Positions 34,741 through 48,422 of a DNA stretch of 64,000 nucleotides are shown piece by piece. This DNA is from Escherichia coli (GTDB taxonomy: Bacteria > Pseudomonadota > Gammaproteobacteria > Enterobacterales > Enterobacteriaceae). The notes under the pieces were generated by a model, which saw nothing but the letters and a program-made list of their open reading frames with translations, was not told where the DNA came from and did no database searches. A program made the translations under genes and the position numbers. The stretch is taken from assembly GCF_003334305.1 (NCBI RefSeq), contig NZ_QOWS01000001.1; one strand, written 5' to 3'. Position 1 is the first letter of the stretch; every line of letters starts with the position of its first letter.

Positions 34741-34863
34741 ACCTACCCCGCAACTCACTGATGCCGCGTGCGCAGAATCACTATCACTGTTGTTAAATCC
34801 AGAATTTGAACCTGCAACAGCACCAGCAGGCGATACATCAAATCAGGCACCTCATTGGTTAGT
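34741..34863 (-). pseudogene. hisI 3'-end remnant (about 120 bp, about 75-80% identical to the 3' end of intact hisI at 47792-47926)
   Basis: Gap-free alignment done by eye between the two + strand segments; same orientation as intact hisI; no start codon and no preserved stop. Confidence 0.7.
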
Positions 34864-35143
34864 ATGTACCTTCGCAAAACGGGATTACTCACAGCGAACA
34901 TGGCGTAATTTTGTACAAATCTGTTTTTTTTATCAGCAGATTATTTAGCAACCAGGCAAAAAATGTCATGCCTTTCTTCATTTTTACTTATATATCAATT
35001 GATTATAATTAATTGGTTTGGTAAATGTTTAAGATGTGTATTATTTGAGTAATCCATTAATTAGTCGGCTTTTATATTTTTTTTCCCAGCATGCAACGCT
35101 ATAATCTGCGAAGATTTTTTTGTGGAATGTGCAGTGTAGAGGC

Positions 35144-35428
35144 ATGAGTCGTTTATCCCACCAGTCGCAACATAACGCCGTCGTCGTGTGCAAAGAGCTG
35201 TCAAGCCCGAACGCGCGCTGCTTCTCTGGCGGCGAATACGATGTCTCTTCTTATCTTTCCTCGTATCGTAAATGCTCCTTTCTGATGGTTGCTGGCATCG
35301 GTAAATCACTTGATTCGTTTTTTTTGATGGCGGTGAGAGCATGTGTTTTGCCCCGCGTAAATGAGAAGGTCCTGATGGTTACTCTGGCGGCAAATGTGGA
35401 AATTGTGGGGCGTTTCGTGGCCTGGTGA
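35144..35428 (+). CDS. Hypothetical small protein (orphan ORF in the wzz-manC junction)
   Basis: 94-aa ORF from ATG 35144 (GAGG just upstream), in frame with a longer ORF from 35120; followed by a strong hairpin terminator; no recognisable domain. Confidence 0.3.
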   Translation: MSRLSHQSQHNAVVVCKELSSPNARCFSGGEYDVSSYLSSYRKCSFLMVAGIGKSLDSFFLMAVRACVLPRVNEKVLMVTLAANVEIVGRFVAW

Positions 35429-35444
35429 GGAACAGATACATATT

Positions 35445-35490
35445 AAAAGCAGAGATATGCCCTGAGACATATCTCTGCTTTTAGGTTTTC
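35445..35490 (+). terminator. Strong stem-loop / putative intrinsic terminator
   Basis: 11-bp near-perfect inverted repeat GCAGAGATATG...CATATCTCTGC followed by TTTTAGGTTTT. Confidence 0.65.
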
Positions 35491-35582
35491 AGGATGCCCG
35501 TTCCGTAAGGATGGTTTTTGAGACCGCTGAGTGAAGGGGCTGCCGACAGTCTGAAGCGAAAGAGGGTGGCGTTTAGCCTGGA

Positions 35583-35624
35583 GCACTACGCATTTTGGTT
35601 GCGATAGCCAATGGCGGTAGCGTA
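35583..35624 (+). promoter_or_regulatory. Degenerate JUMPstart-like element with ops-like site
   Basis: GGCGGTAGCGT at 35613-35623 with partial JUMPstart similarity upstream, about 80 bp before manC. Confidence 0.6.
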
Positions 35625-35701
35625 CCTGAAAAAGGCCATTCAACCCGTTGGTCGATTGATTGATAGTAAAATAAAACAATTATTTATTTAAGGATTTCAT
35701 T

Positions 35702-45448: not shown

Positions 45449-45499
45449 AAATATCTCTCTTGTATTTTTTGCCTTTGAATACAAGAGGGGTTAGATAAT

Positions 45500-46657
45500 G
45501 TGTCATTTATTATGAAAATTATTTTTGCTACTGAGCCAATTAAATACCCATTAACGGGCATCGGTCGGTATTCCCTGGAGCTGGTTAAGCGGCTGGCGGT
45601 CGCCCGCGAAATTGAAGAATTAAAGCTATTTCACGGTGCGTCGTTTATAGAACAGATCCCTTTGGTGGAGAATAAAAGCGATACCAAAGCCAGCAATCAT
45701 GGTCGTCTGTCGGCGTTTCTACGCCGACAGACGCTGTTGATTGAGGCTTATCGCTTGCTGCATCCGCGGCGCCAGGCGTGGGCATTGCGCGACTATAAGG
45801 ATTATATCTACCATGGCCCCAATTTTTATCTGCCGCATAAACTGGAACGCGCCGTGACCACGTTTCATGACATATCCATTTTTACCTGCCCGGAATATCA
45901 TCCAAAAGATCGGGTTCGCTATATGGAGAAGTCCCTGCATGAGAGTCTGGATTCGGCAAAGCTGATCCTGACCGTTTCTGATTTCTCGCGCAGTGAAATT
46001 ATCCGCTTGTTCAACTATCCGGAGGAGCGGATCGTAACCACCAAGCTAGCCTGCAGCAGTGACTATATCCCACGCAGCCCGGCAGAGTGTCTGCCGGTAC
46101 TGCAGAAATATCAGCTGGCGTGGCAGGCCTACGCGCTATATATCGGCACTATGGAGCCACGTAAAAATATCCGAGGCCTGCTGCATGCCTATCAGCTGCT
46201 ACCGATGGAGATCCGCATGCGCTATCCGCTAATCCTTAGCGGCTATCGCGGCTGGGAAGACGATGTGCTGTGGCAGTTAGTCGAGCTCGGTACTCGGGAA
46301 GGCTGGATCCGTTACCTCGGATATGTTCCGGATGAAGACCTGCCGTATCTGTACGCAGCGGCCAGAGTCTTTGTTTATCCCTCCTTCTACGAGGGATTCG
46401 GTTTACCTATTCTTGAAGCGATGTCTTGCGGTGTGCCGGTAGTATGCTCCAATGTCACCTCTTTGCCTGAGGTTGTTGGCGATGCCGGCCTCGTTGCCGA
46501 TCCTAATGATATAGACGCGATTAGCGCGCAAATTTTGCAGAGCCTGCAAGATGATAGCTGGCGGGAAATCGCCACCGCGCGCGGTCTTGCTCAGGCGAAA
46601 CAGTTTTCGTGGGAGAACTGTGCGACACAGACCATTAACGCCTATAAATTACTCTAA
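45500..46657 (+). CDS. wbdB: Mannosyltransferase (GT4)
   Basis: GT4 motif EGFGLPILEAMSCGVPVV; GTG at 45500 after AAGAGGGG, alternative ATG at 45512. Confidence 0.8.
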   Translation: MSFIMKIIFATEPIKYPLTGIGRYSLELVKRLAVAREIEELKLFHGASFIEQIPLVENKSDTKASNHGRLSAFLRRQTLLIEAYRLLHPRRQAWALRDYKDYIYHGPNFYLPHKLERAVTTFHDISIFTCPEYHPKDRVRYMEKSLHESLDSAKLILTVSDFSRSEIIRLFNYPEERIVTTKLACSSDYIPRSPAECLPVLQKYQLAWQAYALYIGTMEPRKNIRGLLHAYQLLPMEIRMRYPLILSGYRGWEDDVLWQLVELGTREGWIRYLGYVPDEDLPYLYAAARVFVYPSFYEGFGLPILEAMSCGVPVVCSNVTSLPEVVGDAGLVADPNDIDAISAQILQSLQDDSWREIATARGLAQAKQFSWENCATQTINAYKLL

Positions 46658-46666
46658 GGGTGTCAG

Positions 46667-47782
46667 TTGAGAGTTCTACACGTCTATAAGACTTACTATC
46701 CCGATACCTACGGCGGTATTGAGCAGGTAATTTATCAGCTAAGTCAGGGCTGCGCCCGCCGGGGAATCGCAGCCGATGTTTTCACTTTTAGCCCGGACAA
46801 AGATACAGGTCCTGTCGCTTACGAAGATCATCGGGTCATTTATAATAAACAGCTTTTTGAAATTGCCTCCACGCCGTTTTCGCTGAAAGCGTTAAAGCGT
46901 TTTAAGCTGATTAAAGATGACTACGATATCATCAACTACCATTTTCCGTTTCCCTTTATGGATATGCTGCATCTTTCGGCGCGGCCTGACGCCAGGACTG
47001 TGGTGACCTATCACTCTGATATAGTGAAACAAAAACGGTTAATGAAGCTGTACCAGCCGCTGCAGGAGCGATTTCTCAGCGGCGTAGATTGCATCGTTGC
47101 CTCGTCGCCCAATTATGTGGCTTCCAGCCAGACCCTGAAAAAATATCTGGATAAAACGGTGGTGATCCCGTTTGGTCTGGAACAGCAGGACGTGCAGCAC
47201 GATCCGCAGAGGGTCGCGCACTGGCGGGAAACTGTCGGCGATAAGTTCTTTCTCTTCGTCGGCACTTTCCGCTACTACAAAGGGCTGCATATTCTGATGG
47301 ATGCCGCTGAGCGTAGCCGACTGCCAGTGGTGGTTGTAGGGGGCGGGCCGCTGGAATCGGAAGTGCGGCGTGAAGCGCAGCAGCGCGGGCTGAGCAATGT
47401 GATGTTTACCGGCATGCTCAACGACGAAGATAAGTACATTCTCTTCCAGCTCTGCCGGGGCGTGGTATTCCCCTCGCATCTGCGCTCTGAGGCGTTTGGT
47501 ATTACGTTATTGGAAGGCGCACGCTTCGCAAGGCCACTGATCTCTTGTGAGATTGGTACAGGTACCTCTTTCATTAACCAGGACAAAGTGAGTGGTTGCG
47601 TGATTCCGCCGAATGATAGCCAGGCGCTGGTGGAGGCGATGAATGAGCTCTGGAATAACGAGGAAACCTCCAACCGCTATGGCGAAAACTCGCGTCGTCG
47701 TTTTGAAGAGATGTTTACTGCCGACCATATGATTGACGCCTATGTCAATCTCTACACTACATTGCTGGAAAGCAAATCCTGA
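46667..47782 (+). CDS. wbdC: Mannosyltransferase (GT4)
   Basis: 371 aa; apparent TTG start at 46667 (stop codon TAA three codons upstream in frame, AAGGG RBS). Confidence 0.8.
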   Translation: MRVLHVYKTYYPDTYGGIEQVIYQLSQGCARRGIAADVFTFSPDKDTGPVAYEDHRVIYNKQLFEIASTPFSLKALKRFKLIKDDYDIINYHFPFPFMDMLHLSARPDARTVVTYHSDIVKQKRLMKLYQPLQERFLSGVDCIVASSPNYVASSQTLKKYLDKTVVIPFGLEQQDVQHDPQRVAHWRETVGDKFFLFVGTFRYYKGLHILMDAAERSRLPVVVVGGGPLESEVRREAQQRGLSNVMFTGMLNDEDKYILFQLCRGVVFPSHLRSEAFGITLLEGARFARPLISCEIGTGTSFINQDKVSGCVIPPNDSQALVEAMNELWNNEETSNRYGENSRRRFEEMFTADHMIDAYVNLYTTLLESKS

Positions 47783-47791
47783 GAGATGCTA

Positions 47792-47812
47792 CCCCCGCCG
47801 TTGCTGCGGGGG
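47792..47812. terminator. Stem-loop between convergent wbdC and hisI (putative bidirectional terminator)
   Basis: CCCCCGC-N7-GCGGGGG hairpin; no clear U-tract on either side. Confidence 0.4.
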
Positions 47813-47820
47813 CCAACGCG

Positions 47821-48422
47821 TTAATGCCGATTCTTCAGATTATCAATCACTTCTCCGAGATCCAGCCCTTGATCCTGCAACAACACCAGCAGGTGATACA
47901 TCAAATCAGATGCCTCGTTGGTCAGTTCAAAGCGGTCATGTACTGTCGCTGCCAGTGCGGTTTCCACCCCTTCTTCACCCACTTTCTGCGCAATGCGTTT
48001 GGTGCCGCTGGCATACAGTTTGGCGGTGTAGGAGGTTTCCGGGTCGGCTGATTTGCGTTCGGCGAGCAGTTGTTCCAGTTGATACAGAAACAGCCACTGG
48101 TGAGCAGTTTCGCCGAAGCAGCTGCTGGTGCCTTTATGGCAGGTTGGTCCGATAGGATTCGCCAGTACCAGTAGCGTGTCGTTGTCGCAGTCCGGCGCAA
48201 TATTTACTACGTTGAGGAAATTGCCCGACGTTTCGCCTTTGGTCCACAGTCGCTGTTTAGTGCGCGAGAAGAAAGTGACTTTGCCGCTTTCGATGGTTTT
48301 GTCTAAGGCTTCCGGGTTCATATAGCCCAGCATTAACACTTCGCCGGATACCGCGTGTTGCACAATCACCGGCATAAGTCCGTCGGTTTTTTCCCAGTCC
48401 AGTTCGCGGCGTTGTTGTTCTG

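Follow-up and report, generated by a model that had tools for sequence, protein, structure and literature searches.

Why is the end of a histidine biosynthesis gene found on both sides of an O-antigen cluster in Escherichia coli? The stretch analyzed here, called the window below, comprises 64,000 nucleotides (nt) of contig NZ_QOWS01000001.1 (assembly GCF_003334305.1) and contains a region which, judged from its genes, is an E. coli O8 locus with the order gnd-ugd-wzzB-remnant-manCB-wzm-wzt-wbdDABC-hisIE. The remnant in this order is a decayed 3' end of hisI located between wzzB and manC, and it forms a direct repeat with the end of the functional hisIE (47821-48429, minus strand, followed by hisF) on the other side of the polymannan genes. 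An initial annotation had interpreted this repeat as the scar of a recombination within hisI that imported the polymannan cluster. The comparisons presented here support this interpretation and assign the roles of the two partners. The remnant is likely to be the 3' tail of the hisI that the recipient E. coli itself possessed, orphaned but still joined to its native spacer and to wzzB, and the scar as a whole is probably the ordinary, non-functional trace of an insertion into hisI with a Klebsiella-type donor and E. coli as the recipient.

Alignment of positions 34751-34863 with 47814-47926 revealed 83/113 identical positions (73.5%) in the same orientation, at a fixed offset of 13063 nt and without gaps; the longest run identical in both copies is 15 nt. 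Within the repeat a core (34797-34863 and 47860-47926) shows 56/67 identical positions (84%), and the distal part of the remnant (34751-34796) matches the intact copy at 27/46. The local alignment score was 79, compared with 17.6 ± 2.3 and a maximum of 26 in 500 shuffles, and a blastn search of the remnant across the 64-kb window identified a single significant partner (E=3e-19; runner-up E=0.09). A gapless hisI repeat in the same orientation, as recognized in the initial annotation, is therefore real and lies far above the shuffled controls that had been suggested as a check, but several details had to be corrected. The homology starts at 34751 instead of 34741, and the spans of 123 and 135 nt assigned to the two copies cannot both be gapless. 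Identity had been put at 75-80%, compared with 73% over the full span and 84% in the inner 67 nt alone. The downstream hairpin does not belong to the repeat, because an E. coli-type spacer lies 3' of the remnant stop and a Klebsiella-type hairpin 3' of the intact hisI, and the two do not align. Finally, the remnant represents more than the last ~35 codons. Relative to the corresponding remnant of GF130 (L001), which keeps TTCGAAGCAGT, it has an 11-nt deletion after 34863, and past this gap ATGTACCTTCGC (34864-34875) again matches hisI (47938-47949). Since the homology resumes beyond the deletion, ~43 of the ~203 hisI codons are represented in ~125 bases (34751-34875, minus strand, stop codon TGA at 34755-34757).

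The hisI-tail segment matches in 5403/5426 complete E. coli genomes, once in each at hisIE (5644 places in total), and ~240 of the 5426 genomes contain a second copy. The proposed check for a generic repeat thus pointed to hisIE, with one place per genome except in remnant carriers, and not to the many copies at unrelated loci that are typical of repetitive extragenic palindromic (REP) sequences, bacterial interspersed mosaic elements (BIME) or the ends of insertion sequences (IS).

The left copy is of the E. coli type. It is identical to K-12 hisI at 91/113 positions, compared with the 83/113 for the intact hisI of the window, and for its distal 46 nt the corresponding values are 36/46 and 27/46. 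The minus-strand frame is open for 36 codons up to a K-12-type stop (...RHQ-stop), so that the remnant ends one codon later than the working hisI of the window. For a more specific comparison we used 30 diagnostic sites, defined as the positions that separate the hisI tails of three E. coli (K-12, E371 and Z0117EC0013) from those of five Klebsiella-type loci (L072-L076). In both the window and GF130, the remnant has the E. coli state at the majority of sites and at 8/9 in the part nearest the junction, which assigns the remnant to E. coli.

The DNA to the left of the remnant is E. coli-type as well. The open reading frame (ORF) of wzzB, the gene of the O-antigen chain-length regulator (33581-34561, plus strand; annotated under this name in H15, which is 100% identical, and in other strains), is ~92% identical to its K-12 counterpart at the 3' end. 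It is followed by a native E. coli wzz-hisI spacer with REP-like units (34562-34750), which is collinear with the wzzB-hisIE spacer of Z0117EC0013 and shows 77-83% identity to this long form, whereas K-12 and E371 have a shorter form. The spacer includes the wzz terminator hairpin (34576-34611; the fold of 34575-34615 has -26.8 kcal/mol, z -7.1) and, at ~34715-34750, a decayed version of the K-12 hairpin located downstream of hisI. Over its whole length, 34562-34875 is collinear with the native wzz-hisI junction of ordinary E. coli. The comparison with K-12-like genomes proposed in the initial annotation gave the expected result: K-12, E371 and Z0117EC0013 contain wzzB, a short spacer and hisIE with nothing between them. 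Between Z0117EC0013 and K-12 the native spacer is 70-81% identical (about 70-85% between strains), while the hisI tails are 97% identical. As the spacer is highly polymorphic in ordinary E. coli, deep divergence of neutral sequence is normal at the wzz-hisI locus. The long and short forms of the native wzzB-hisIE spacer differ by one REP-like unit more or less (L082, L083, L004). Taken together, the site states, the stop codon and the collinear spacer indicate that the left copy represents the former wzz-hisI junction of E. coli, interrupted within hisI.

The intact hisI, in contrast, carries donor-type sequence at its 3' end. The interval 47783-47860 (minus strand) contains a spacer and the last ~13-14 codons of the functional gene and is nearly identical to L072-L076, whereas only 27/46 positions match K-12; it includes a GC-rich hairpin of the Klebsiella type (47792-47812; -17.9 and -18.7 kcal/mol on the two strands) and the Klebsiella-type hisI codons (47821-47860). 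Of the diagnostic sites, 17/20 up to position 47859 have the Klebsiella state and 10/10 from 47872 onwards that of E. coli. A homologous crossover can therefore be placed inside hisI at 47861-47871, between the last site with the Klebsiella state (47859) and the first with the E. coli state (47872). The remainder of hisIE (47872-48429) is E. coli-type, with 93-99% identity to K-12 in 100-nt bins, and 47872-47949 within it forms the right-hand member of the duplicated E. coli segment. In GF130 the tail corresponding to 47787-47868 is identical to that of the window and allelic differences begin at 47869; the same pattern is also present in L055 and L058. By their site states, the working hisI genes of these strains are thus shown to be Klebsiella/E. 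coli hybrids. The last 14 codons are the most dissimilar part of hisI between E. coli and Klebsiella, and homologous exchange would be expected to stop at 47861-47871 for this reason. The Klebsiella-type codons of the intact copy also account for the poor match over 34751-34796, and the remaining differences between both copies are due to decay of the remnant.

The other end of the imported DNA could be located with similar precision. Homology to the window starts at 34902 in Klebsiella-type O5 loci (L076 and L072), in an O3 locus (L068), in E. coli HS (L003, O9) and in L058, and L076 and L072 are collinear with the window from 34902 through 51790. To the left of this position the Klebsiella-type loci continue with sequence towards an epimerase gene, which is missing from the window; on this side they are adjoined by ugd, a small membrane protein and the epimerase, without wzz. 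No hisI fragment was found upstream of manC in the Klebsiella-type O5 (L072-L076) or O3 (L068) loci, in HS or in L058. The absence of the remnant from the Klebsiella-type loci and the collinear native junction both support the importation of the cluster through recombination within hisI. The Klebsiella-type loci were obtained by exact-protein look-ups, and the label of the O5 loci is based on ugd, a small protein of Pfam family KPN01023 and the epimerase to the left as well as on the divergence of his at the diagnostic sites. Between the remnant and the homologous region lie 26 nt (34876-34901) that match neither hisI nor the Klebsiella-type sequence left of the leader. This filler was present only in orthologous remnant-bearing loci when 81 loci were searched, and GF130 carries a diverged filler at the same place, from which we conclude that the junction arose once.

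The following course of events would lead to the present arrangement. A Klebsiella-derived segment consisting of a leader with a JUMPstart/ops element, manCB-wzm-wzt-wbdDABC, a terminator hairpin and the end of hisI would have been inserted into the recipient hisI ~43 codons before its stop codon. Homologous recombination would have made the join on the his side, with the present boundary at 47861-47871; on the wzz side an illegitimate join would have linked hisI codon ~-43, via 26 nt of filler, to the leader at 34902. With a hisI end supplied by the insert, the old tail would now form a direct repeat with the working gene, and since this incoming end was complete, histidine biosynthesis would have stayed intact. 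The orphaned tail would have become a functionless pseudogene fragment which later decayed. We infer the order of these events, the route that duplicated ~80 nt and the combination of one-sided homology with illegitimate end-joining from the arrangement of the two junctions.

Several observations weigh against this course of events in its simplest form. Codons -14 to -43 occur in two copies of the E. coli type, which a one-step replacement of E. coli by Klebsiella DNA does not yield. Two routes could lead to this duplication. The immediate donor may have been an E. coli that already possessed the Klebsiella cluster and a hybrid hisI, and such E. coli, which lack a remnant and have either IS1 or a left flank of the Klebsiella type, do exist among the loci. 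As a second possibility, a later recombination in his may have trimmed the Klebsiella-type his back to the limit of homology at codon -14. The filler could be matched to neither parent, so that the illegitimate step is inferred rather than seen. Within the Klebsiella-type hisI tail, positions 47824, 47827 and 47831 show the E. coli state, which could reflect a short conversion patch or variation in an unsampled donor. The Klebsiella-type O5 loci are only 88.6% identical to the cluster of the window (L076, collinear); loci of the L072-L076 type are therefore relatives of the donor and not the donor. Their assignment to Klebsiella depends on architecture, on a Pfam family whose name derives from a K. 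pneumoniae gene and on his divergence, and it should be read as a probable one. Moreover, the two remnant haplotypes differ by 19% and the cluster that they flank by 1%, and a single simple event is insufficient alone to explain this difference.

The last point concerns the age of the scar, which was analyzed in a three-way comparison of K-12 with the remnants of the window and of GF130. Both remnants share 16 changes from K-12, 14 of them transitions, and 9/10 of the coding ones are at third positions; these shared third-position changes point to an already diverged functional allele of the recipient. The private changes (13 in the window remnant, 14 in that of GF130) are spread over codon positions 3/2/1 as 4/6/2 and 2/2/4, and each haplotype has a private deletion (11 nt and 6 nt, respectively). 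Private changes at all codon positions together with indels suggest neutral decay after an old event, and this pattern shows relaxed constraint on the remnant. With the hisI similarity in register with the stop codon, the conserved synteny and a truncation without purifying selection, the segment has the properties of a gene remnant. The initial annotation had attributed the divergence of the repeat either to an old event or to a diverged donor his sequence. The old event is supported by the private changes and indels; a diverged allele was also involved, but it was that of the recipient, and a donor origin of the remnant is very improbable.

The two haplotypes are 80-82% identical, whereas the flanks in the 5' part of wzzB and in manC are 97-100% identical. 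Comparison of 34300-35000 with positions 2700-3450 of GF130 gave 62-90% identity in 100-nt bins around the remnant and the filler, and the O8 clusters of both are 99% identical. Nine window-type remnant loci differ by 0-5% among themselves and from the window and are all ~81% identical to GF130, the only sampled locus with the deep haplotype. The GF130 locus additionally contains an opposite-strand gene for an NAD-dependent epimerase and a partial hypothetical gene between ugd and wzzB (594-1876), both of which are missing in the window, which places the two remnant haplotypes in different left-flank arrangements. We read these data as an old junction whose cargo may have been homogenized or replaced more recently. 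It is conceivable, as a tentative extension, that the scar is much older than its present cargo and that the wzz-remnant-leader junction served as a long-lived docking site, where mannan alleles were swapped repeatedly via leader and his homology, or that one haplotype spent a long time outside E. coli.

Of the explanations that differ from an insertion with an illegitimate left join, Campbell-type integration accounts best for the repeat. In this model a circularized fragment (filler, leader, cluster, hairpin and hisI tail up to codon -43) would have integrated by a single homologous crossover in the hisI tail, duplicating the tail automatically, so that one step would explain the direct repeat flanking the insert. 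Starting from a circle of an E. coli donor with hybrid hisI, the model predicts exactly the observed site states. A circle of Klebsiella DNA, however, would have left Klebsiella-type codons -14 to -43 in the remnant, where the E. coli state was found at 8/9 sites, and this version is disfavoured by the diagnostic sites. In addition, the segment available for the crossover is only ~90 nt long, and closure of the circle would still need an illegitimate join. The genes located between the repeats all belong to the sugar-nucleotide, transporter or glycosyltransferase categories, and no integrase or mobile-element gene was found among them. A 73% identity of the repeats and the lack of an integrase or recombinase gene between them are also unlike an integrase-type island. 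We regard Campbell-type integration as unlikely.

It is much less probable that the remnant arrived with the donor, as a fragment of a hisI of Klebsiella or of another genus already located upstream of manC. The identity of 79-83% to any of the ~5400 E. coli hisI tails would fit such a foreign origin, but the remnant has E. coli states at the diagnostic sites and is continuous with a spacer of the E. coli type and with wzzB, both absent at this place in Klebsiella-type loci. Furthermore, neither the Klebsiella-type O5 and O3 loci nor the E. coli loci with a Klebsiella-type left flank contain a corresponding fragment.

Slightly weaker still is the idea that the remnant was retained for a function, for instance by insulating the mannan operon from wzz or acting as a terminator between them, or by giving rise to a small RNA or peptide. 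Its persistence in ~240 genomes and the open minus-strand frame would be in line with a function, but the private indels of 11 and 6 nt, the substitutions at all codon positions and the low identity of the haplotypes relative to the flanking genes are not. The fold of the decayed hairpin (34712-34757) is no better than that of shuffled sequences (z -0.87), and an Rfam search detected no family in the remnant. We therefore consider a retained function highly improbable. A chance similarity or a generic REP/BIME-like repeat, for which a sub-threshold Rfam match to naRNA4 (REP-type) at 34578-34647 just upstream could be cited, can practically be dismissed in view of the alignment statistics with one partner in the window, the location at hisIE in 5403 genomes, once each except in remnant carriers, and a frame that is open for 36 codons to a K-12-type stop.

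Insertion into the recipient hisI agrees in many respects with what is known about these loci. The O8/O9/O9a clusters lie between gnd and hisI, a location which is normal in Klebsiella and reflects lateral transfer, and gene remnants at the borders of O-antigen clusters are a recognized trace of recombination (PMC7685785). The window shows the gene set, gene order and atypical gnd/ugd/wzz-hisI position of the transfer from Klebsiella O5/O3 to E. coli O8/O9/O9a, and beyond the described transfer it provides both ends of the imported segment, i.e. the Klebsiella-type leader and the hisI tail. As in other border remnants, a truncated, non-functional piece of a housekeeping gene is found at a swapped polysaccharide cluster; the differences are that hisI is affected, that the site is outside the usual galF-gnd cassette and that the piece forms a direct repeat with the working gene. 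Remnants of O8/O9 clusters next to his have been described in E. coli with Klebsiella-type group 1 capsule loci (PMC6128206). We found this arrangement in L055, L058 and L081, which have the same Klebsiella-type hisI tail as the window, but a Klebsiella-type left flank (ugd, small membrane protein, epimerase) or IS1, no wzz and no remnant. The junction type of the window is a separate solution for the left end. An assignment of L058 itself to Klebsiella was rejected on the basis of his genes that share 96-99% identity with those of K-12; this locus belongs to an E. coli whose capsule flank is of the Klebsiella type.

In naturally transformable bacteria, homology-facilitated illegitimate recombination combines one homologous anchor with an illegitimate join. 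The window likewise has a homologous anchor (his) on one side only and a wzz side without parental homology; because of the 26-nt filler no microhomology is readable, and the resemblance should be taken as an analogy.

The feature is of a known kind, the transfer has long been established, and the fragment is already flagged in RefSeq as a partial hisIE pseudogene; no new element or mechanism is involved. The Prokaryotic Genome Annotation Pipeline (PGAP) describes the orthologous stretch as a partial hisIE, a pyrophosphohydrolase-domain or a hypothetical pseudogene in GF130, TK3889, BS90R-A, NCTC11129 and 571, with the label 'incomplete; missing N-terminus', and leaves it unannotated in H15. 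No description of this hisI remnant or of its junctions was found in the literature searched, with Sugiyama 1998 and Kido and Kobayashi 2000 outside the search. The present comparisons assign donor and recipient roles and resolve the junctions near-exactly. The repeat locates, with an accuracy of a few bases, both ends of the DNA from which E. coli obtained its O8 polymannan O antigen, shows which side belongs to the recipient and which to the donor, and separates this insertion from other O8/O9 routes with a Klebsiella-type left flank or IS1. This can be used for studies of O-antigen evolution, for locus annotation and for typing by junction.

The 1140-nt non-coding stretch between wzzB and manC is 100% identical in strain H15 and was found at full length in 238/5426 complete E. 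coli genomes. All remnant-bearing loci whose wzm annotation was read belong to the O8 family. In strain 571 (L079, 4692-8241) an IS3 family insertion sequence replaces manC through wbdA, and wzzB, the remnant, a portion of the leader, the final third of wbdB, wbdC and hisIE are kept; this locus is a decayed O8 locus with both repeat copies. A scan of the GTDB species representatives with the O8 Wzm protein gave no Klebsiella representative among the matches, and the closest relatives among them were from Serratia quinivorans (83%, L006), Pantoea brenneri (80%, L007) and a Pantoea sp. (L021).

The imported segment starts with a Klebsiella-type rfb leader, defined by its homology to the Klebsiella-type loci (34902-35701, plus strand; the leader is named 'X' here). 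A JUMPstart/ops element (GGCGGTAGCGT, 35588-35624) is located in it 78 nt upstream of manC; its Rfam score of 20.7 bits is below the gathering score of 35, but 35588-35623 is identical at 36/36 positions to the leader of L062. The latter locus, which shares the small KPN01023 protein, carries a wzm-wzt-glf cluster of the O1/O2 type in the corresponding position. Upstream of manC the leader also contains a putative orphan ORF of 94 codons (35144-35428, plus strand), which is open in 6/8 homologous leaders from E. coli and Klebsiella-type loci and frameshifted in GF130 and HS; its predicted product is poorly conserved and has no Pfam match on record. Just after this ORF follows a palindrome with a perfect 17-bp stem (35443-35484; -22.5 kcal/mol, z -6.7), which is also present in Klebsiella-type loci, as indicated by self-inverted blast matches in L058, L064, L068 and L076.

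The ORFs of the O8-type polymannan cluster (manC-manB-wzm-wzt-wbdD-wbdA-wbdB-wbdC, plus strand) occupy 35702-47782. Judged by the genes only, their set and order next to hisI correspond to the Klebsiella O5/E. coli O8 type of polymannan rfb, and the cluster is collinear with L072-L076. In the identical locus of H15, RefSeq labels wzm and wzt as O8-family and also lists wbdC. At the left end of the region gnd (30617-32023) is followed by ugd. Upstream of it, in the galF-gnd interval, the window harbours a second polysaccharide cluster of the Wzx/Wzy type (24786-30498). RefSeq assigns the H15 counterpart of this cluster to the O46/O134 family and flags its wzy as frameshifted; the window has an ORF of 379 codons at 27838-28977 inside the cluster. 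Loci of this sort in O8/O9 strains reportedly make group 4 ('IB') K antigens.

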